Origin: an uncultured Pseudomonadota bacterium
Lineage (GTDB): Bacteria > SAR324 > NAC60-12
Assembly: GCA_913020725.1 (NCBI GenBank)
Contig: CAJWCD010000008.1
Location: 1-49,425 of the forward strand
Reading direction: 5' to 3'
Length of the DNA stretch: 49,425 nucleotides
Shown: in pieces, positions 16,285 through 34,109 of the stretch
Layout: every line of letters starts with the position of its first letter
Numbering within the stretch: position 1 is the stretch's first letter
Program-made: the position numbers and the translations under genes
The notes under the pieces: generated by a model
Database searches by the model: none
Seen by the model: the letters and a program-made list of their open reading frames with translations, nothing else
Told to the model about the DNA's origin: nothing

Positions 16285-17022
16285 ATGGGGCAGCAGGAAA
16301 GGGTGGCAGACGCGGTGATCGCCGCCGCCGGACAGGGAAAGCGCGTGGGGGCTAGGCGTAACAAGCTCCTGCTTGCTCTCGGGGACAGGAGCGTTTTGGA
16401 GCGCACCATTGAGGTGTTCCGGACGCATTCACGCATTCGTCGCATCTGGCTGGTGGTGTCACCACAGGATCGCGATGAGATCGAAACTCTAACGGCTGGA
16501 ATGGACATCACTCTTGTGAACGGAGGAATCCGGAGACAGGATTCGGTGCATTGTGCGCTCACGCAACTCCGTGAATCCGAGGCACCTACGCATGTGCTGA
16601 TTCAGGATGGCGCACGTCCCTTCACCACGCACGACTTGATTGACCGTATTCTCGATGCCTGTTTTGAGCATGGCGCCGCAATTCCGGGGGTGCCGTTGAC
16701 GGACACCATCCGACGGATCCGGGAAGGAACAACCGAAGTGATTGACCGCTCCAAACTGATCGCCGTGCAGACGCCGCAGGGTTTCCAACTGGACTGGCTC
16801 TGGAACGCTTCGCAGCAGGCGCAAGCACAGGACGGCTCCGTGACCGATGATGCCAGCCTGCTGGAAAACGCCGGGCATCGAGTTCACTGCGTTCCGGGAG
16901 ACCCCGACAACCGCAAGCTCACCATCCCAGAGGATTTCGAGTGGGCAAGGCGGCTTCTCGTCCAAGTCCATCCAGCAACGTTTTCCTCTCGTTCCGCACT
17001 CTCCATGCCGCTCCATGCCTGA
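16285..17022 (+). CDS. ispD: 2-C-methyl-D-erythritol 4-phosphate cytidylyltransferase
   Basis: AAAGQGKR, GGIRRQDSV, QDGARP, VQTPQGF, TDDASL and KLTIPED. Confidence 0.95.
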   Translation: MGQQERVADAVIAAAGQGKRVGARRNKLLLALGDRSVLERTIEVFRTHSRIRRIWLVVSPQDRDEIETLTAGMDITLVNGGIRRQDSVHCALTQLRESEAPTHVLIQDGARPFTTHDLIDRILDACFEHGAAIPGVPLTDTIRRIREGTTEVIDRSKLIAVQTPQGFQLDWLWNASQQAQAQDGSVTDDASLLENAGHRVHCVPGDPDNRKLTIPEDFEWARRLLVQVHPATFSSRSALSMPLHA

Positions 17023-19774
17023 TCGCTTTTTCGTACAACCGAATGGATTTTTCCTTTGGCAAAGGGGCGGGTGGGCAGGGCTACGGGCGTGGCTGCTCTG
17101 CTGTTGTTTCGTGCTGGCCTGCGGTCTCTTTCAGCCTGTCGAAAGCTGGGCAGCCAAAAAGAAAAAAGTCACGATCAACCTGCCCCAGACGCTGATCCTC
17201 AAGGAGTTCATCAAGATCATCGCCAACGAAACCGACACCGTTTTCGTGTACGAGGAGAAGAACCTCCGGGGGCAGATGTCCATCACCGCCCCGCCCAATT
17301 TCAAGATCACCTCTGAGGATGCCTTCTTCTTTTTCGAGAAAATTCTCCAGAAACAGGGCCTTGCGATGGTCCGGAGACAGGGCAGCAACGTTGTGGAGAT
17401 TTTGCCCTCCGGGGATGCAAGGTTTTCCCAACTGCCGATTTCCCGGGACGAGGATGGGCTGTTGCGGGAAACCACCCACGTCATGCGGCTGATCCGCATC
17501 AAGAATAGTGACCTCAAACGCATCCAGTCCACCATCCAGCCGATCTTTTCGAAGACGGGAGTGATGCTTGTTTACGACCCCTTGGATCTGCTGATCGTCA
17601 TTGACAGTGCGGCGAACATCAACCGGCTCGTGGAGATCATTGACGTGCTAGATGTCCCTGATCCGGATGGCTTGGAGCAGATCGTCACGGTTTACAAGTT
17701 GCGTCATAACAGCCCGGCAGAGATTCATAAGACGATCACGGAACTCTTCTCCAACCTGATTCGCAACGGACGCCCCTTACGCTACAAACTACTCATCGAG
17801 AACCGGCTCAACTCGCTCATCCTCATCGCCAACCGTGCCAATGGCAAGGAGATTCTCAGTTACATCAAGCAGTTGGATGTTCCGGTTCATGGGGCCACAC
17901 CGACCATCCACGAATTGCGTTACGGAGAGCCGGGAAAACTTGTCCCGCTGATCTCCCAGATTTTCCCGAAAACAGAATCCATCAAGCTCATCCCGTTCAC
18001 TCCGCTGAATGCGCTCATCATCCTTGCCAATCCAGTGACGACGCAGGAGATCATCGGACTCGTCAACCAGCTCGATCTCCCCCGGGGCAACTACCTAATC
18101 AAACTTCATCGACTGGAATACGCCTCTGCGAAAACACTGGCCCCACTGCTCTCCAGCATTTTTGCCGACCGCATTGTCGCGGGCAAGGGGGAAGGCAAAA
18201 CTGCCCCCGGAAGTCAGGTCAAGATCATCGCTGAGTCGCGTCTCAACGCGCTCATCATCATTGCGGATCGCCTCGCGACTGAGCGCGTCATCAAGCTAGC
18301 CAACCAGCTTGATGTGCCGCAGAGCGGAGGCGGGGAAATCCAAATCCAGTTGGAGCGATTGCGCTACACCTCTGCCAAGGTGATGGCTCCGTTGCTCTCG
18401 AAAATTTTCGCCGACCGTATCGTTGCAGGCAAGGGCGAGGGGCAGGCGACACAAAGCAGTCCCATCAAGATCATCGAGGAACCCCGGCTCAACGCGCTCA
18501 TCATCATTGCCGGACGGTTGGAGATGGGGCGCGTTCTGGAACTCGTCCAGCAATTAGATGTTTTTCAAGACACTGGGCGCATCCAGAGCAATTTCAAACT
18601 CTATCGGCTTGAATATGCCGTTGCCGAAGATCTCGCCAAACTACTCAAGGAAATGACCGGGCAGATCACTGAGGTTTCGCGCAACGAGCAGGAAGGGCAG
18701 GCCGCCCCGCCGGAGTCAACAAAACCCGCATCCGGGAAGTCCGAGATCACCATCAGCGCGGACGAAGCGACGAATTCCCTGCTCGTCTTCGCACCCGCCG
18801 ATACCTACCTCACACTTGACCAACTTGTCGAGGAACTGGACGTGCCCCGCATGCAGGTGTATGTCGAGGCGCTCGTGATGGAAGTGTCGCTCACCAAGAG
18901 CCTCGACCTTGGCGTCAAGTGGCGTGCAGCGGGCGTAACCTCCAGCGGAAAAATCATCTCCGGAGGGTGGGGATCAGGTGCCGGGCTTGATTCTGCTTCG
19001 ATTGGAACCAATGCAAACTCGGCAAACTTGGGGTATATGGGAGGCAACACCCTCAGCATTGGGGGGACCAGCTACACGAGTTTTGGTGCGTTCATCAGCG
19101 CAACGAAAACTGACACGGACGTGAACGTGCTGGCGAATCCACAGTTGCTGATGCTCAACAACGAGGAGGCGACGATCAACGTTTCCACGAACACACCCGT
19201 GGGGGTGAAGACCATCACGAACGCCAACAACACCCAGACCACGCAGTACGAGTTCAAGGATGTGGGGGTGAAACTCACCATTAAACCGCAAATCAGCGGG
19301 GAGGACAGCATCCGCTTGGAGATTGCTCAGGAATCGAGCAACATTGCGACCGAGCAAAAATTGAGCGCAGACAAGGCGATCATGACCTTCAAACGTGAAC
19401 TGAAAACCACGGTCGTGACCGGAAATGACGACATCGTGGTGTTGGGCGGCTTGATCAACGAAGGTGACACTCGCTCCGAATCGAAAATTCCGGGCTTTGG
19501 GGATTTGCCGTTGCTCGGTTGGTTGTTCCGGAGTAACACCGGAAAGTTCGAGAAAACCAACCTACTTATTTTCATCCGACCCACGATCATCCGCAATCGC
19601 GCAGATTTGGCACGGGTGACGGAGCGGGCACGGGTACGGTATGATGCCAGCCAAGGCCCGCAAAGCGTTTCCGGAACAGTCCGTGCAGACATGGGCCTGA
19701 AGGAACCCGAAAAGGAAACGCCCAGTGCCGGAGGGACTGAGGCCGAGGCAGCGGGCGCAACAGAGCAGCCCTGA
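17015..19774 (+). CDS. gspD: Type II secretion secretin with expanded N-domain array
   Basis: Signal peptide; repeated (RL)N.LI...QLDVP N-domains; QVYVEALVMEV, ANPQLLMLNNEEA and KIPGFGDLPLLGWLF...NLLIFIRPTII. Start uncertain. Confidence 0.92.
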   Translation: MPDRFFVQPNGFFLWQRGGWAGLRAWLLCCCFVLACGLFQPVESWAAKKKKVTINLPQTLILKEFIKIIANETDTVFVYEEKNLRGQMSITAPPNFKITSEDAFFFFEKILQKQGLAMVRRQGSNVVEILPSGDARFSQLPISRDEDGLLRETTHVMRLIRIKNSDLKRIQSTIQPIFSKTGVMLVYDPLDLLIVIDSAANINRLVEIIDVLDVPDPDGLEQIVTVYKLRHNSPAEIHKTITELFSNLIRNGRPLRYKLLIENRLNSLILIANRANGKEILSYIKQLDVPVHGATPTIHELRYGEPGKLVPLISQIFPKTESIKLIPFTPLNALIILANPVTTQEIIGLVNQLDLPRGNYLIKLHRLEYASAKTLAPLLSSIFADRIVAGKGEGKTAPGSQVKIIAESRLNALIIIADRLATERVIKLANQLDVPQSGGGEIQIQLERLRYTSAKVMAPLLSKIFADRIVAGKGEGQATQSSPIKIIEEPRLNALIIIAGRLEMGRVLELVQQLDVFQDTGRIQSNFKLYRLEYAVAEDLAKLLKEMTGQITEVSRNEQEGQAAPPESTKPASGKSEITISADEATNSLLVFAPADTYLTLDQLVEELDVPRMQVYVEALVMEVSLTKSLDLGVKWRAAGVTSSGKIISGGWGSGAGLDSASIGTNANSANLGYMGGNTLSIGGTSYTSFGAFISATKTDTDVNVLANPQLLMLNNEEATINVSTNTPVGVKTITNANNTQTTQYEFKDVGVKLTIKPQISGEDSIRLEIAQESSNIATEQKLSADKAIMTFKRELKTTVVTGNDDIVVLGGLINEGDTRSESKIPGFGDLPLLGWLFRSNTGKFEKTNLLIFIRPTIIRNRADLARVTERARVRYDASQGPQSVSGTVRADMGLKEPEKETPSAGGTEAEAAGATEQP

Positions 19775-27971: not shown

Positions 27972-28382
27972 TGCGAAAGGGTGCAAGTAAAAGTAAGACT
28001 TTTGCTTAATCAGTCCGGTATGTGCTGCATCCAGTAGTTGGTCCAACGTTGATTTTTCCGGGCGACTCTGAGTGCGAGCATGGAGTTGGCATTCTCCAGT
28101 TTCCACCAAGCCCCCGGGATTTTGAGCCGTTTTTGAATGAGATGCCGATGTGAGCTTTCAATCAGTCCGGATCCAATGAGCAACTGCTTGGTAGGGGCAT
28201 ATCATTAAATGATATAGTGGTAGTAGCTACGAACATAATACCAATTTGTGATTCAAATGTGCCATTGTCATTGAAATCTCTTCGGCTTCGCTTGAGTGAT
28301 CCATGAATGTCAATGGAAGGTTTCTAATCGTAAACGGTATAAGCCGTCTGAACAAGGAATTCAGCAAGAAGCACACCAGTGG

Positions 28383-28398
28383 TGGAATCATACTTGCA
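28383..28398 (+). promoter_or_regulatory. Putative sigma54 (-24/-12) promoter
   Basis: TGGAATCATACTTGCA has exact TGG-N8-TTGCA spacing, ends 40 nt before ATG 28438, and lies in an AT-rich divergent intergenic region. Confidence 0.55.
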
Positions 28399-28437
28399 GA
28401 AGACTCTCCGAGACCTTTTGGCTTTTGTGAACCCTGC

Positions 28438-29535
28438 ATGACTTCCACCTTGCTTCGCTTCAGCAAACTACCCCTTGCACTCCTGACCCTATCCATCCTC
28501 CTCTTTGGAACGGTGGGTTGTTCCAGTTCTGACCCGGAACCTCCGGAGAAACCACAACGTTCCTCAAAGCGCATCTCCGAAAAACAGGCGGAGTCCGAGG
28601 AAGCCGAGGTGCAGGAACTTCAGTATTGGGGCGATCCCCACCTCACGCTGTTGGAGCAGATCATGCCTAAGCTGAAGCAGGAAACGGAGGGCTTGTTCGA
28701 CAAGGCCAACTCGGTGGCGATTTCCAGCATTTCTTACGGCGACAAGCTGCCGAACCACTTCCGGAAGGTGGCCACGGCCCGACTGCATCAGGTGCTGACG
28801 CGGTTGCCCAAGCTCAAGGTGAGCGTCTGCGAAGCCTGTAGCCAAATCCGCACACAGATTTCCGGAAGTTACCTCAAGATCACCCGTGGGATCGCGGATG
28901 ACGAATACCGCCGCGAAACCGCCCAGCAACTCAACGTCGAGGGCTTCATCGACATTGCGCTCTTCATGAGCGACCGACAGCTTTCCGTGTCACTCAATGC
29001 GTATGAGGCGCAAAAGGGCGAGATCATCTATTCCCGCATCGTCACCAGCGAACCGATGAAACGCGAGGAATACCTGCACGTCTATCTGGGCAAGATGACC
29101 CTGCCAATCAACGAACCCTCCCCCCGTTCAGGAAAAACCGTGCTCCATCAATCCATCATCTTGGGCGCAGAGCGGGTGGTGCGGCTCAATCAGGGCTGGA
29201 CTTCTGGAATCAGCGCTGCGTTTTTCAGCGATGACAACAGCAAGCTCACCGCTTCCGAAAAAGTCAGCGGCGGCACCAGCGGGGTGATGGTGGACGGCGT
29301 GGTGGGCTACGATGTGGTAGGCTTTGGCAGCAACCGAGGGGCGGTCACACTGAACCTCGGCTTGGGGATGATGATTGCCACCTCCATCAATTCGCCTCCA
29401 TATTTAAAAACCGGGGTGTCCGTCACAGTTGCAGAGCAACTGACGCTGGGCTACAACTACCTCCTCATGCTCACCAGTACCACTGCGCTCAAATTGCCCA
29501 GTGCTTCTTACTTTGCGGTCGGATGGAAATTCTGA
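28438..29535 (+). CDS. Outer-membrane lipoprotein; CsgG/FlgO-like alpha/beta domain plus probable C-terminal beta-barrel
   Basis: Lipobox TVG-C; VAISSI...AQQLNVEGFID...VSLNAYEAQKGEIIYS pattern; CEAC; ends YFAVGWKF. The fold call is inferred. Confidence 0.55.
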   Translation: MTSTLLRFSKLPLALLTLSILLFGTVGCSSSDPEPPEKPQRSSKRISEKQAESEEAEVQELQYWGDPHLTLLEQIMPKLKQETEGLFDKANSVAISSISYGDKLPNHFRKVATARLHQVLTRLPKLKVSVCEACSQIRTQISGSYLKITRGIADDEYRRETAQQLNVEGFIDIALFMSDRQLSVSLNAYEAQKGEIIYSRIVTSEPMKREEYLHVYLGKMTLPINEPSPRSGKTVLHQSIILGAERVVRLNQGWTSGISAAFFSDDNSKLTASEKVSGGTSGVMVDGVVGYDVVGFGSNRGAVTLNLGLGMMIATSINSPPYLKTGVSVTVAEQLTLGYNYLLMLTSTTALKLPSASYFAVGWKF

Positions 29536-29546
29536 AGGTAAAAGAA

Positions 29547-30959
29547 ATGCTCGAGTGCCGGAAGGTGCCGCGAGGGCGCTTGGCTCCCTCGCGGCAGCTT
29601 GCGGGCATGTTGGCGGTCCTCTGCATGATTCTGCTTTCCGGATGTGGGGACAAACAGACGGAACCACCGCAAGAGGAGGAAATTGCGGCCAAACCCGTCG
29701 TCAAGAAACTGCTCTTCACGCAACGCACCCAGGGCGGCAAGAACTCGATCGACGTCATCGAGGAAACAGAGGGGTACCGGCGCACCCTGCGGATTGTGCT
29801 GCAACGCGGCGACCTCAGTTCCAATCTGATCCACCCCATCGACAGTCCAAATTTCGTCATCGCCGTTCCGCTTCAGGACGCAACGAGCAAGCAGTTCAGC
29901 CTGCAAACGGCAGTTTATGAACTGCGACTCAAGGAGCATATTGATCAACTTCTGGCCCGCTACCTTGCTCCGGAGCGCTACAACGTTTCAGTGGTCGTGT
30001 CGTGGGACGAGAAGCTCTTGCAGGAGGTCCAGCTCAAGAGCCTACCGATTGACACTCCCGTGGACGCTCTCCCACTTCCAAAAATGCCGGAGGCCCAAAC
30101 TTCCGAAGAGGGCGAGGCGGGTGCCGAAAGAAATGCTGGAAACTTGCCTGTCACACTGGATGAACCCACGCCCACCCAGCGTGTGCGCAGCGTGAATCCA
30201 GACTCCAACTACGAACTCAAGTACGCCGTCGTTTCGGTCAAGGTGCAGGTGCTTTTGGACAACACGCTGCCGGGCAGTCAGGAGCAGTTCATCCAGCAAC
30301 TCATTCCGGTGCAAGAGTTCTACAACGCCCAGCGCGGCGATAGCGTAACGGTGCAGCGCACCTCATTTCCTAAACCCTTCTCTGACAGCGTGGCCCCCTA
30401 CGAGGAGCAGATCATCATGCGTAAGCTCACAGAATTGGTGCAGAAATATGTGTCGCCCAACGAGTTTGTCGTCAATGTCAAGTTCACGCTGATCGATACA
30501 GAATCAGCAACGGAGTCGTCGAGCAACATCAAGATGAACATCGACCTGCTGCTCGACGAGGTCGTGCTTCCAGACGTGGACACCTTCCTACAGGAGGCGA
30601 TCCCACTGGCCGTCAATTTCAACGCCGAACGCGGGGACACGCTCAACATCATCCGCAAGCGTTTCCCAGAACGAAACTTTGGTTCGGTTTCCTCTGAACA
30701 GGTTGCTGCACTCCGGGATTACAAGGACAAGATTCTGGAGGCGTTCCAGACCGGCGATTATGTGGGAGGCTTGGAATGGGCCGACAAGGGACTGCGCATC
30801 GCGGTGCGTCGCATGGACAAGGTATTTTTGATGAAGATGAAAGGCTCGCTCCACTTCCTGCTTGAGGAGAAGGATAAGGCGCTGGAGGTTTGGCAGCACG
30901 TCCAGCGGCTGGATCCGAGTGACGAGGAGGTGCGGCAGATGCTGGAGAACCTGCAATAA
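29547..30959 (+). CDS. Lipoprotein with two FliF-C (RBM3)-like domains and C-terminal TPR
   Basis: Lipobox LSG-C; YNAQRGDSVTVQRTSF and FNAERGDTLNIIRKRF resemble the FliF xRGDxxxV motif; ALEVWQHVQRLDP TPR. Confidence 0.65.
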   Translation: MLECRKVPRGRLAPSRQLAGMLAVLCMILLSGCGDKQTEPPQEEEIAAKPVVKKLLFTQRTQGGKNSIDVIEETEGYRRTLRIVLQRGDLSSNLIHPIDSPNFVIAVPLQDATSKQFSLQTAVYELRLKEHIDQLLARYLAPERYNVSVVVSWDEKLLQEVQLKSLPIDTPVDALPLPKMPEAQTSEEGEAGAERNAGNLPVTLDEPTPTQRVRSVNPDSNYELKYAVVSVKVQVLLDNTLPGSQEQFIQQLIPVQEFYNAQRGDSVTVQRTSFPKPFSDSVAPYEEQIIMRKLTELVQKYVSPNEFVVNVKFTLIDTESATESSSNIKMNIDLLLDEVVLPDVDTFLQEAIPLAVNFNAERGDTLNIIRKRFPERNFGSVSSEQVAALRDYKDKILEAFQTGDYVGGLEWADKGLRIAVRRMDKVFLMKMKGSLHFLLEEKDKALEVWQHVQRLDPSDEEVRQMLENLQ

Positions 30960-30966
30960 AGACAGA

Positions 30967-32169
30967 ATGCTTCGCGTTGCTTCGCGCCCTTCGTGGCTCA
31001 AAAAAGCACTTGTCTTGTCCGGGATTATCATGCTGACAGGCAGTGCCCCAGTGTGGTCGGCGGACACCCCACCTGCTCCGGAACCGGAAGCGGAGGTCGT
31101 GGATGACCCTTCCCCGCAAGCCGCCGAGCAAGCGGAGGGCAAGCGGCGTAGCCTTGAGGAATTGCTCGCGGTGCCGTTTCAGCAACTCAAGGAAATGCAG
31201 CAGGCGGAATATGGTGAGATCGAGCCGCTTCCGGGAGAGGACAACGCCACTGTCACCCGTTCCGAAGCTGGAGATATCCGACTCCCCCCTCCGCCGGAAC
31301 AGGGCAAGCACGAACGCGACCTAGAGCAGCAGCTTGACGTGATCCTCCGGGAGCAACTCCCAAGCGAATACGTCGGCGTCACCGTCAGCGTCAAGTACAC
31401 CCTCCAGACGATTCCGATTTCCAAGAGCAACAAACAGATTTCCAAGGTCAAGCTTCCGGGGTTTGAGAACAACGTCTGGGTGCCCACCGAGAAGAAACGT
31501 GTGGTAGGAATCATCAATCAGATTCAGACCTACACGACCATCTTTGTCGTGGTCAATCAACCCATCTCGCTCTTCAATGTGGAAGTGCTGCGGCAAGTGC
31601 TTTCGGATCGGGTGGAGGGCTTGAACCTGCGGGCACAGGATGTCCTCAAGGTCGTCTATGTGCCAACGTCCAAGCCTTCGGAAGCGCGGGTTGAGCGTTT
31701 GAGCAACGCCGCCGCCGAACACGAGGAGGCCAAACAGGCTGCAGAAGCCCAGCGGATTAAGCAAACTGCGGCTGCTGAAGAAGCAACCACAGAGGGTGAA
31801 ACCACAGAAAAGGCAGAAGCCGAAATCCCTGCGGCCAAAGCAGAAGCGGTTGCCGAGGCAGAACCAGAAGTGGAAAAACCCGAAATTCAGCCAGAGGACG
31901 TGGACATGCAGGCGCGGATGGAAACCACGCGCTATCTGTTGCAAGCCCGCGAAGCCTACTTCCAGAACGATTTCGACAGCGCCATTGATGACATCCGCAA
32001 AGCGCTGGAGATCAATCCCTACTCCTCGCAGGGCTACGAAATGCTCGGTTCGATCTACTATCGGCTCAACTGGACCAGCATGGCCGCAGAAAACTGGCAA
32101 CGCGCCTTAGAACTTGATCCAGAGAACAAAAATCTCCGCAAATACCTCAACAAACTGACACGACGATGA
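30967..32169 (+). CDS. Exported protein with FliF-RBM3-like domain, Ala/Glu linker and TPRs
   Basis: Signal peptide (VWS-A); ERDLEQQLDVIL...VTVSVKY...LPGF...IFVVVN...LRAQDVLKVV; KALEINP and RALELDPEN TPRs. Confidence 0.6.
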   Translation: MLRVASRPSWLKKALVLSGIIMLTGSAPVWSADTPPAPEPEAEVVDDPSPQAAEQAEGKRRSLEELLAVPFQQLKEMQQAEYGEIEPLPGEDNATVTRSEAGDIRLPPPPEQGKHERDLEQQLDVILREQLPSEYVGVTVSVKYTLQTIPISKSNKQISKVKLPGFENNVWVPTEKKRVVGIINQIQTYTTIFVVVNQPISLFNVEVLRQVLSDRVEGLNLRAQDVLKVVYVPTSKPSEARVERLSNAAAEHEEAKQAAEAQRIKQTAAAEEATTEGETTEKAEAEIPAAKAEAVAEAEPEVEKPEIQPEDVDMQARMETTRYLLQAREAYFQNDFDSAIDDIRKALEINPYSSQGYEMLGSIYYRLNWTSMAAENWQRALELDPENKNLRKYLNKLTRR

Positions 32170-34109
32170 TCCGACGAAACGCAATCGTTCTGGCAGGAGT
32201 GCTAGGGCTGCTCTGGGTCTGCTTGGTGCTGCCCAACATTTCCGGGGCACAGGAGCGGGTGAAGTCACTCACCATCCGACAGTTCGAGATTGAGGAAGCG
32301 ATCCGTAACGGTCTCAAGTATTACCTCGAACCCCGCGATTATGTGCTGCGTGTCAAGCTCACGGGCGAGCAACGTGTGGCTGGCGTTGAACACGAGGCGC
32401 TGCCTGGTTTTGGGCCAATGGTGAATCCTGCGCAAGCAAAGGGTGAGAAGTACTGGGAAATTCTGCGGATGCAGGTTGACCTTGTGATGCACAAGGAGGT
32501 TTCACCTTCGCTGAACACCTACATTTCTGAGATCGTTCCTATCCTCAGCGGACTCGATTACGAACGCGGCGACGAATTCAACTTTGTGCCGATCGTGCCA
32601 CAGGCATTGGAACCGCCTCCAGTCGCGCAAGCGCAAGCGGCACCGGCCACCATCGAAGCAGAAAAACCGGAACCCGAAAAACCAGCGGTGGTCGTGGCCA
32701 CTCTCCCCAAAGCCGACGAGCAAAAAGGCGAGCAACCCCAAGAGACGTCTAAAACCCAACCGGAACCTGTGGTCGACGGTCCGCCTCCAGGGTTGTGGGA
32801 AGCGATGACGTTGGTTGAGAAGGTGCTTGCGGTAGGATTGGCGTTGCTGCTGCTGCTGCTGCTCTTCGTCTTGTGGAAACTGAACCGAATGCAGTCTGCG
32901 GAACAACAAGGGCTGGCGAAGCTGCTCGCACAGCAGCAGCAGCTTGCACTTCCGGGAATGGGAGCGATGGCTTTGCCTTCCCCCCAACAGACGTTGGAGT
33001 CGGTGGAGGAATCTCGGAGGAAGTATTTGCAGACGCAGGAATCTCAGGTGCAGGAGGCGTTGCTGCAAGAGAGCAACGAGCGCATGGCGCAAGACATCGT
33101 CAAGCAACTTGTGGGACGGGATGATTGGAAGCAGGACTTGATTCAAGAGATGACCCGCGACAAGCAGTCAATGGAATCGCTCACCCAACTACTCGCGGTC
33201 ATTGGCCCGGAAACCACCCGGAGTCTGTTTGGTCGGGTGATGCCGCAAGACTCTTTTCTGGAACTCGAACAACTCGCCCGTGATGCAAAGGTTTCCACGG
33301 CAGAAGCAAACACGACACTCAAGAACGTCGCGATGTTTCTGCTCACCCGCAAACTGATTGCTCCGGAACAACCGACGACCAACCTCTTCGGCTTCCTTGA
33401 GGAGATGTCCACGGGGCAAGTGAGCTATCTCATCAACGATGAACCTTCGAAAATCAAGGCCATCGTCATCAGCCGACTCATCAGCGAACAGGCCGCAGAA
33501 ATCCTCCACAACATCTCCAAGGACGAGCGTACTCTGGTTGCCGTCGAATTGGGACGGCTCAGCGAACTACCCACCAAGCTCGTGGAGCAGGTGGCCTATA
33601 ATTTGGCGGACAAGGCACGGACAGTTCCGGACGAGAACTCGGTGTCGGTTGACGGCATCCGCTTTGTCGCGGACGTGCTGGGAGACGCCGACCCGACCAC
33701 CCGTGAGGAACTGCTCAACGGTTTGCGCGTTACCGATCAGAAGCTCAGCGAGGAAATCGAAAGCCGCTGCTTCATCTTCGACTCCATCCCTTTCGTACCC
33801 CGTGAGGTGCTGGTGGAGGTGGTCCGGAAGCTGCCGCCGGATGTGGTGGTGACGGCAATTTCCGGAGCCGACAAGTCCATTCAGGAAGCCGTGGTGTTGT
33901 GCTTCCCGGAGCAGACGCGCAAGGCGATCGTCTCTGCGCTCAAGGCCAAGAAACCATCTGCCGAGGAAATCCGCGAGGCCCGCCAGCAGTTCGTGAAGTC
34001 CATGCGCAGCATGTCTGATGCGAACAAGGTGGACCTCCGCGAAGTCAACTCCGCCTTCTCTCACCAAGAGAGTGCCCCCGCCCTCAGCTACGAGGAACAA
34101 CCCGCCTGA
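32166..34109 (+). CDS. FliF-like ring domain / TM helix / FliG(N-M-C) fusion protein
   Basis: Signal peptide; GLDYERGDEFNF; TM at ~32823-32876; FliG-like LLAVIGPE, FGFLEEM..INDEPSKIKAIVISRL..EQAAEIL, DGIRFVADVL, LSEEIESRCFIFDSI and EIREARQQFV. Confidence 0.8.
   Translation: MIRRNAIVLAGVLGLLWVCLVLPNISGAQERVKSLTIRQFEIEEAIRNGLKYYLEPRDYVLRVKLTGEQRVAGVEHEALPGFGPMVNPAQAKGEKYWEILRMQVDLVMHKEVSPSLNTYISEIVPILSGLDYERGDEFNFVPIVPQALEPPPVAQAQAAPATIEAEKPEPEKPAVVVATLPKADEQKGEQPQETSKTQPEPVVDGPPPGLWEAMTLVEKVLAVGLALLLLLLLFVLWKLNRMQSAEQQGLAKLLAQQQQLALPGMGAMALPSPQQTLESVEESRRKYLQTQESQVQEALLQESNERMAQDIVKQLVGRDDWKQDLIQEMTRDKQSMESLTQLLAVIGPETTRSLFGRVMPQDSFLELEQLARDAKVSTAEANTTLKNVAMFLLTRKLIAPEQPTTNLFGFLEEMSTGQVSYLINDEPSKIKAIVISRLISEQAAEILHNISKDERTLVAVELGRLSELPTKLVEQVAYNLADKARTVPDENSVSVDGIRFVADVLGDADPTTREELLNGLRVTDQKLSEEIESRCFIFDSIPFVPREVLVEVVRKLPPDVVVTAISGADKSIQEAVVLCFPEQTRKAIVSALKAKKPSAEEIREARQQFVKSMRSMSDANKVDLREVNSAFSHQESAPALSYEEQPA

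Follow-up and report, generated by a model that had tools for sequence, protein, structure and literature searches.

A natural FliF-FliG fusion protein of SAR324 bacteria and its probable role as the rotor of a non-flagellar motor

Results

A natural FliF-FliG fusion in SAR324

The window analysed here is a stretch of 49,425 nucleotides from an uncultured SAR324 bacterium (NAC60-12; assembly GCA_913020725.1, contig CAJWCD010000008.1; "this genome", G000, below), and all features described lie on its + strand. The open reading frame at 32166..34109 encodes a protein of 647 amino acids that Pfam, Foldseek and hhalign identify as a fusion of FliF (RBM3 and TM2) to FliG, and which would be a rotor ring subunit. 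The protein begins with a probable cleavable signal peptide (residues 1-28; 32166..32249; by eye and from the structure model), which occupies the place of TM1, RBM1 and RBM2 of FliF; PF01514, which covers these three elements, is not matched by the fusion and has its sole match in this genome on C47. A hydrophobic N-terminus is common among the 103 full-length representatives of the fusion family. Next comes an RBM3-like periplasmic domain with a short beta-collar (residues 35-142; 32268..32591), recognised from model secondary structure, by Foldseek against FliF S-ring structures (E 7e-4 to 8e-3) and by the family profile, which matches residues 232-558 of Salmonella FliF (E 2.4e-11) and, weakly, SpoIIIAG (E 0.028); hhalign places the fusion on residues 374-471 of E. 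coli FliF with a probability of 94. At the collar tip lies an LPGF motif (32400..32411) that aligns to IPG of Vibrio FliF and is present in 91 of 98 family rows, with L79, P80 and G81 conserved in at least 90% of them; the LPGF loop is a candidate partner-binding loop. A Pro/Glu/Ala-rich linker (residues 144-207; 32595..32786), 64 residues long with 14 P and 9 E, and disordered as judged from composition and the structure model, leads to a single inner-membrane helix (approximately residues 217-239; 32814..32882), the equivalent of FliF TM2, which was assigned by eye, from alignments and from the structure model. The signal peptide, RBM3-like domain, linker and single transmembrane helix are as described in the original prediction.

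The FliG region (residues 334-625; 33165..34040) consists of the first half of FliG_N followed by FliG_M and FliG_C, and hhalign aligns it with residues 5-324 of E. coli FliG at a probability of 99.9. Pfam recognises FliG_M (residues 418-489; 38.9 bits, cut-off 25) and FliG_C (residues 520-623; 60.5 bits, cut-off 23.3), while FliG_N stays below the Pfam cut-off and approximately 27 FliG residues (~71-99, the second half of FliG_N) are absent; of the three FliG domains claimed originally, M and C stand and FliG_N is only partly present. The family is ~20% identical to flagellar FliG, a soluble protein of ~335 amino acids, and the fusion, with its transmembrane helix, scores 61.7 bits against TIGR00207 (flagellar FliG; cut-off 226.7), compared with 331 and 321 bits for the two free FliG proteins of this genome. 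The best PDB sequence match of the family profile is 8z4d, an engineered Vibrio FliF-FliG fusion, to which it aligns end to end (positions 17-587 of 597; E 1.9e-49). In the Foldseek ranking, which is the only source of fold evidence used, FliG structures take places 1-13 and FliF S-ring and MS-ring structures places 14-30. A single-sequence AlphaFold model of the fusion was set aside (pLDDT 42).

Phylogenetic analyses, unrooted and with a limited sample of free FliG, gave one branch separating 62 fusions from 26 free FliG rows (support 97); after removal of 30 long or redundant rows, the 38 remaining fusions again formed one branch apart from 20 free rows (100/100). An AU test rejected the grouping of the fusions with SAR324's own FliG (p 1.35e-4), and in no tree did the fusions nest within ordinary flagellar FliG. 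Together, these sequence comparisons support a natural FliF(RBM3+TM2)-FliG fusion that is separate from flagellar FliG, as originally proposed.

FliM-binding motif and torque helix

Motif positions were read from the alignment to E. coli FliG and agree with the earlier readings. EPSK (from E426; 33441..33452) is found where the FliM-binding EHPQ is expected, the hinge glycines G194-G195 correspond to D496-G497, and MFLF corresponds to C535-F-I-F. EHPQ is kept in 19 of 19 canonical FliG rows and is degenerate throughout the fusion family, where 3 of the 81 distant rows have the Q; given also the carriers that lack FliM (below), the fusion is probably not switched by FliM/CheY, in line with the original prediction.

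In the torque helix (residues 580-592; 33903..33941) R281 is replaced by Q583 and D288/D289 by S590/A591, the losses that had been noted before; with K264 replaced by S566 and R297 by S598, all five E. coli torque charges are replaced. E582 and R585 are each conserved in 16 of 17 SAR324-like rows. Within the SAR324 clade an acid at 288/289 occurs in 0 of 17 rows, and 7 of the 17 are basic at 281, compared with R/K at 281 in 78 and D/E at 289 in 39 of the 81 non-SAR324 representatives. Conserved charge on the torque helix, which the original prediction took as evidence against its own reading, is thus found at the level of the family and, on these alignments, torque-charge loss is a trait of SAR324 and not of the fusion family. 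The loss is also seen in SAR324 fusions with adjacent stator genes. Torque-helix charges matter in E. coli, as described in PMC6680979; in Vibrio, neutralisation of the equivalent charges is described as not abolishing motility (10.1101/2021.01.07.425829).

The operon and a conserved five-gene module

Three genes precede the fusion. The stop of the gene at 30967..32169 overlaps the start of the fusion, and its product is an exported protein that has a single RBM3-like domain (LPGF motif; hhalign 96.9% to RBM) and a C-terminal TPR (Pfam TPR; hhalign 98.6% to the TPR lipoprotein of the module described below). The gene at 29523..30959 encodes a lipoprotein composed of the N-domain of that TPR lipoprotein, two RBM3-like domains and a TPR (hhalign 96.7%, 98.7%, 98.4% and 97.3%); it matches an RBM profile built from non-SAR324 rows with E 4e-30, and Pfam YscJ_FliF_C below its cut-off (E 0.0014). 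The gene at 28303..29535 (probable start 28438) encodes a predicted outer-membrane protein with an LpoB/CsgG-like domain and a small beta-barrel, which the family profile identifies as a member of the conserved module. Atlas look-alikes at 0.91-0.94 carry LpoB, CsgG and OMP_b-brl, OMP_b-brl was matched weakly in 2 of 57 barrel-protein members, and a search for a PDB relative found none. The SAR324 operon thus has two added RBM3-TPR proteins.

The conserved module consists of the fusion, the barrel protein, the TPR lipoprotein, MotA and MotB. All five genes occur in order in 59 of 70 GTDB loci from Fibrobacterota, Balneolota, Rhodothermota and Bacteroidota, and in 59 of the 60 untruncated loci, i.e. 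those with at least 3.2 kb downstream. Both locus scans were seeded with one 11-row alignment, and the loci fetched are therefore biased to Fibrobacterota and Balneolota. Within the five genes no shaft, rod, bushing ring or filament is evident, and there is no FliM/N, export gate, hook or TonB/TolA-like tether gene. A promoter and terminator scan was at chance level, and metatranscriptome contigs from four runs that cover parts of the operon include its flanks and therefore give no sign of operon transcription or its level.

A Balneolaceae paralogue has, in place of the barrel gene, an usher-like gene that belongs to a pilus-like cluster. The label usher-like rests on size, gene order and the usual layout of such clusters; in this cluster, usher (PF00577) and PapD-like chaperone had no match in Pfam or PDB, and DUF4402 exceeded its cut-off in one of eight small proteins scanned and was weaker in four more.

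A dedicated MotA/MotB stator

A MotA/MotB pair adjoins the fusion in 14 of 20 SAR324 regions. Two of the other six stop at a contig edge, three come from genomes of the same family (in the two tested the orthologous pair lies at another place, and the third has the orthologous MotA) and one is of a divergent type; no MotAB lies within ~9 kb of the three divergent SAR324 fusions L079, L247 and L248. For the one exception among the 60 untruncated loci, a stand-alone MotA in that genome groups with the operon MotAs. The search of this genome for motA and fliM that had been proposed returned three FliM matches and an orthologous MotA/MotB pair on contig C1, unlinked from the operon. The C1 proteins are 61% and 59% identical to an operon-linked pair, versus 33% and 25-31% for the presumed flagellar set on C21, and C1 MotA groups with the operon MotAs (support 98); among the NCBIfam MotA, PomA and MotP models its best score is 132 bits versus 394 (MotP model), under all cut-offs.

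The C1 pair carries the marks of a flagellar-type (FIT) stator, i.e. the proton Asp, plug and OmpA-like domain of MotB, the latter two above Pfam cut-offs, and the prolines and rotor-facing Arg and acid of MotA; plug and OmpA domain are described as features of flagellar-type stators in PMC12505986. All 100 operon MotAs retain P173 and P222, and the MotB Asp motif is present in 99 of 113. Of the 13 SAR324 operon MotAs, 12 have the Arg and all have an Asp eight positions further on, the spacing of E. coli R90/E98, while the charges vary more in the MotAs of Fibrobacterota and Balneolota (54 of 79 with K/R at 90; 36 of 79 with D/E at 98).

Among 88 genomes of the phylum, 40 have both the fusion and this MotA, four only the fusion, three only the MotA and 41 neither, with cut-offs (E<1e-50, E<1e-75) placed at gaps in the results and with kin that are not independent. 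The seven discordant genomes are 51-89% complete, and 31 of the 41 genomes with neither have FlhA. The stator orthologue thus co-occurs with the fusion in 40 of 44 genomes, and its identity in the closest genera is 70-96%. The claim that the fusion is not driven by MotA is not supported by these data: the family is accompanied by a MotA/MotB pair of its own, and the stator of this genome keeps the functional residues. Distances between fusions and between their linked MotAs correlate (r 0.93, 78 pairs), as expected from shared ancestry, and are therefore not counted as co-evolution.

Carriers with and without a flagellum

Relatives of the fusion occur in several phyla. FlhA is present in 28 of 50 distant carriers, and in 21 of the 50 neither FlhA nor FliM is present. 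One carrier, G100, has no match to FlhA or FliM and yet has flagellin and FliG, which shows that absence calls can be artefacts; therefore, only genomes without FlhA, FliM, flagellin and free FliG were counted, which leaves 10 of 26 carriers, seven of them closed single-record chromosomes. This genome has FlhA, FliF, two FliG and 18 flagellin matches besides the FliM matches. Cultured carriers are Gracilimonas tropica DSM 19535, which has two such operons, and Balneola sp. EhC07; a table in PMC5167729 gives 'None' for G. tropica in the place where Balneola vulgaris has 'Flagella'. The protein was also found in Vibrio agarivorans and Vibrio sp. SCSIO 43136. A homolog search with one family alignment returned only 10 proteins, and a plasmid search returned no fusion, only three ordinary Curtobacterium FliG.

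Discussion

The relatives of the fusion adjoin their own MotA/MotB, some of them in genomes without a flagellum, and we therefore suggest that the module is likely an undescribed ion-driven rotary machine apart from the flagellum; a literature search found no description of it. Specifically, the fusion is probably the ring-forming rotor of a non-flagellar motor, turned via ion flow by the dedicated MotA/MotB and working without FliM/CheY switching. In this model, (i) RBM3 and FliG_M/FliG_C would assemble into a ring by polymerisation, as is the case for engineered FliF-FliG fusions, (ii) MotA5B2 units, anchored to the wall via the MotB OmpA domain, would engage the FliG_C torque helix, (iii) the ring would turn one way, because EHPQ is lost and there is no FliM partner, (iv) it would house no type III export gate, because RBM1 and RBM2 are absent, and (v) the TPR/barrel assembly would be gripped by the conserved LPG loop of the collar tip, where FliF has the loops that hold the flagellar rod, and this loop would transmit torque or force towards the outer membrane. 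The two extra RBM3-TPR proteins of SAR324 may lengthen or brace the periplasmic part.

The most likely output is not swimming but work done on a structure of the outer membrane or cell surface. That this work takes the form of a rotating barrel/TPR shaft is conceivable, although we lean against it. Slightly short of an even chance, in our estimate, is the wider proposal that at least five phyla possess a second minimal rotary engine, in which a one-gene FliF-FliG ring, turned one way by its own MotAB, spins the barrel and TPR proteins or, in Balneolaceae, an usher-anchored pilus. Gliding is not a favoured output; it is not reported for Balneolaeota in PMC5167729.

Alternatively, ring and stator may interact without continuous rotation, the ring serving in stator docking or gating, in Ton/Tol-like pulling on the barrel, or as a load or surface sensor. 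The lack of a rod, bushing ring and filament in the module would fit such a device, as would torque charges more variable than those of flagellar FliG, a carrier recorded without motility and the many non-rotating outer-membrane tasks powered by stator-family motors as described in PMC12204202. However, the complete FliG_C torque domain, in which nearly all distant rows have R/K at 281, and a flagellar-type MotB with plug and wall anchor fit a gear-driven ring, and no TonB/TolA-like tether is among the five genes; we consider this alternative unlikely.

A second alternative is the reading of the original prediction, restricted to this SAR324 lineage: the ring, uncoupled from its stator, could be a scaffold that polymerises and stays static, or a periplasmic conduit, which the two extra RBM3 proteins would help to build. 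RBM rings of the SpoIIIAG type, to which the family has its weak match, are static, and the replacement of all five torque charges, the location of the stator genes on another contig and the added RBM3-bearing proteins point in the same direction. Nevertheless, the stator orthologue is conserved and kept together with the fusion, its MotA retains both rotor-facing charges, the same charge loss is found where SAR324 stator genes adjoin the fusion, and Vibrio tolerates charge neutralisation (10.1101/2021.01.07.425829), which makes a static ring improbable. Finally, a role for the fusion as accessory or alternative rotor in the flagellum of this genome is very unlikely: the flagellar genes of this genome and the FlhA of many distant carriers would allow it, but ten carriers lack all four flagellar markers, 31 flagellated SAR324 genomes lack the fusion and its MotA, and the export-gate-binding RBM1/RBM2 are absent.

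The rotor-stator model can be set against known systems. With the flagellar motor core (FliF MS-ring, FliG, MotA5B2/PomA5B2) the fusion shares RBM3 and collar, TM2 and the FliG_N/M/C folds, with the Gly hinge and xFxF motif partly kept, and the partner stator shares P173/P222 and rotor-facing charges in MotA and plug, Asp and OmpA domain in MotB. It differs in that rotor and membrane ring are one polypeptide with a signal peptide for TM1-RBM1-RBM2, half of FliG_N deleted and EHPQ lost, and in that the module has outer-membrane barrel and TPR proteins instead of FliM/N, export gate, rod, hook and filament. The engineered Vibrio FliFG (PDB 8Z4D/8Z4G) is described as forming 34/35-mer rings (PMC11481574), and, as cited in PMC4768692, assembly and rotation persist in Salmonella FliF-FliG fusion mutants; these fusions keep RBM1/RBM2 and work inside the flagellum, whereas the present family is natural and widespread. 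The Chlamydiaceae protein, too, joins FliF to FliG naturally and in a bacterium without a flagellum but, as described in PMC4768692 (Bergeron 2016), has ~330 amino acids, two transmembrane helices, no RBM3 and only FliG_M without a torque domain; in the SAR324 protein both RBM3 and the torque domain are retained, and a stator of its own goes with it. ExbBD-TonB, TolQRA, AglRQS, ZorAB and SiiAB resemble the module as 5:2 ion motors working for the outer membrane, yet in the account of PMC12204202 a FliF/FliG ring is described for none of them, and the stator of the module is of the flagellar type and not ExbD/TolR-like.

FliG and its coupling to MotA are regarded as flagellum-specific. A conserved five-gene module in which nothing but the torque-making core is retained, and which survives in flagellum-free genomes, would constitute a new use of this engine, and would make it testable whether rotor and stator can work without export apparatus and switch, and whether rotation is older than the flagellum or was taken from it. 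The five genes are few enough for laboratory expression, and the SAR324 form provides a natural test of how far torque-helix charges can go. The fusion branch lies apart from all sampled flagellar FliG, so the module may serve as a living model for a flagellar motor that has no type III export apparatus. The operon MotAs of SAR324 and of the FCB phyla do not form one group, and the stator may therefore have been recruited more than once; there may also be a link to Bdellovibrio motAB2.

The fusion gene and its family

The fusion gene (32166-34109, + strand) closes a compact row of four plus-strand genes that starts at position 28303 of the window, and Pfam places FliG_M and FliG_C in it above cut-off. 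Its alignment-based AlphaFold model (mean pLDDT 85.4) matches FliG and FliF S-rings in Foldseek. A family profile of 98 relatives aligns over positions 17-587 of 597 to an engineered FliF-FliG fusion of Vibrio (8z4d; E 1.9e-49) and also matches residues 232-558 of Salmonella FliF (E 2.4e-11). The FliG part comprises residues 334-625 and lacks about 27 residues of FliG_N.

A SAR324 cluster bacterium carries the nearest relative with a name. Among 50%-identity representatives, 334 matched at E<=1e-10; among the best 150 of these, 103 are at least 520 aa long, and 101 of the 103 have a hydrophobic segment over our threshold, mostly single and near residue 200-300. Vibrio agarivorans and Vibrio sp. 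SCSIO 43136 are among the named members. A GTDB scan seeded from one sub-clade yielded 70 loci titled Fibrobacterota, Balneolaceae, Rhodothermia and Bacteroidota, together with one unclassified and one labelled Bifidobacteriales; the Balneolaceae isolates among them are Gracilimonas tropica DSM 19535 and Balneola sp. EhC07. In unrooted FliG M-C trees with few free FliG sampled, a single branch splits 62 fusions from 26 other rows (SH-aLRT 97), and after removal of 30 long or redundant rows a single branch splits 38 fusions from 20 other rows (100/100). A grouping of the SAR324 fusions with the FliG of the source genome, G000, was rejected (p 1.35e-4).

Three SAR324 genomes carry a long-branch fusion type (loci L079, L247 and L248) that has neither MotAB nor a gene recognisable as the barrel gene within some 9 kb. 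In locus L246 (7-1371; G010:C213) an adenylate/guanylate cyclase domain and FliG_M/FliG_C share one 454-aa ORF; FliG domains may have a signalling use here.

A dedicated stator

The module comes with a stator of its own. In 59 of the 70 GTDB loci, the set of fusion, barrel protein, TPR lipoprotein, MotA and MotB is complete and in this order. Ten of the others stop short of 3.2 kb downstream, and the remaining one (L200) has no adjacent MotAB; its genome encodes a stand-alone MotA that groups with the operon MotAs. The order is kept where room allows in the 52 metagenome loci, the exceptions being five that extend over 5 kb downstream and lack MotAB. Of 20 fetched SAR324 regions, 14 have MotA and MotB next to the operon, and G000 has an orthologous pair on contig C1 (85859-86824 and 85214-85849; 61% and 59% identity to an operon-linked pair) that also groups with the operon MotAs. 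Across 88 genomes of the phylum, 40 carry both the fusion and the linked-type MotA, 4 only the fusion and 3 only the MotA; the other 41 carry neither, and FlhA is present in 31 of them. The MotA partner keeps P173, P222 and an Arg followed at a spacing of eight residues by an Asp, the MotB partner a plug, the Asp motif and an OmpA domain; judged by these features, the stator looks functional.

The two middle genes of the SAR324 operon add three more RBM3-like domains and TPRs akin to those of the TPR lipoprotein, whose N-domain heads the gene at 29523. The first gene (28303) resembles LpoB/CsgG-plus-barrel proteins; no solved structural relative was found in the PDB. It has a lipobox-like Cys after the signal (28438-28521); most relatives have an Ala-Gln cleavage site. 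In its closest ESM Atlas clusters, Myxococcota, Bdellovibrionota and Balneolota are the most frequent phyla, and thus the module may reach predatory bacteria.

G000 has a second, more divergent module copy (C11:5990-12531, - strand). Its fusion-like gene codes for 579 aa and matches the family profile at E 4e-12; alongside it are MotA, a MotB of 522 aa, a barrel-like gene of 418 aa and an exported protein of 349 aa. MotAs orthologous to this copy occur in many same-family genomes. A variant operon (L078; G045:C11) has a 746-aa fusion, a 449-aa MotB and a 715-aa gene, with a 1410-aa carboxypeptidase-regulatory-like repeat protein upstream.

Proposed mechanism and alternatives

At the collar tip, 91 of the 98 fusions carry an LPG motif that aligns with IPG of Vibrio FliF. 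In the accessible part of one study (10.64898/2025.12.04.692373), FliF loops rising from the collar bind the rod and so transmit torque. We suggest that probably (i) a dedicated MotA5B2 stator would turn a putative FliF-FliG ring in one direction, and (ii) the ring would work on an outer-membrane barrel/TPR assembly. The LPG motif may be a collar loop of the rod-gripping type that binds TPR/barrel proteins. A non-rotating ring serving as transducer or sensor would share the coupling to the stator, and we judge it unlikely.

All motif changes claimed in the original prediction proved correct when the fusion was set against real E. coli FliG, and across the family only the Glu of EHPQ, the FliM-binding motif of FliG, is retained. 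The claimed loss of the torque-helix charges is a true trait of the SAR324 clade but was over-read: position 281 is R or K in 78 of 81 non-SAR324 representatives (position 289 is D or E in 39) and basic in 7 of 17 SAR324-like rows, none of which has either acid. E582 and R585 are each retained in 16 of the 17. A static scaffold in this lineage, as first proposed from the degenerate motifs, has to be set beside the MotA/MotB genes of the same clade, and we give it little credence.

G000 is a flagellated genome, but FlhA and FliM are both absent from 21 of 50 distant fusion carriers, and flagellin and free FliG also from 10 of 26 searched further; given these carriers, the fusion is probably independent of the flagellum, and a flagellar accessory is highly improbable. 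In those 10, seven of them single-record chromosomes, FliG_C matches fall only in frames of about 610-650 aa. The flagellar genes of G000 are scattered (C5:35132-36145, C4:4109-5119, C111, C20, C18, C47, C45): fliG is present in two near-identical copies, fliM gave three matches, of which the one at C18:23764 is divergent, and there are ten matches to the FliM/FliN C-domain and 18 to flagellin.

No description of the module was found in the full-text literature covered, in which few subscription papers are included. Among published natural fusions the closest is Chlamydia FliF-FliG_M, which has neither RBM3 nor torque domain, according to the portion of PMC4768692 available.

A paralogue cluster in Balneolaceae

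A second fusion paralogue occurs at 25 Balneolaceae loci (L235-L241, L243, L244, L277-L292). At 24 of these the barrel gene is replaced by one that codes for about 1000 aa (at one locus 1533) and lies directly before the fusion; 15 of the 24 were outside the set used for building profiles, and the 25th locus is truncated where its contig begins. Pilin-like and chaperone-like genes lie in the same cluster at 23 loci. The run leads from DUF4402-like genes through a chaperone-like gene and a usher-like gene with a TPR end straight into the fusion, followed by TPR lipoprotein, MotA and MotB, usually with SPOR domains. The C-terminal TPR of the large protein matches the TPR lipoprotein with E-values of roughly 1e-24 to 1e-27; of the unrelated TPRs in G000, the best reaches 4e-8. 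Usher and chaperone are names that we infer; neither found a confirming match in Pfam or the PDB. The cluster is a clue to the output of the module, and pilus-like cluster genes of this kind are absent from G000. G. tropica has both operons; in the part of PMC5167729 available, it is tabulated as 'None' where B. vulgaris has 'Flagella', in a column whose head lies outside that part, and gliding is not reported for its phylum.

The window also encodes a 975-aa secretin (16847-19774, + strand) with six Secretin_N repeats, which does not lie within a type II secretion cluster.
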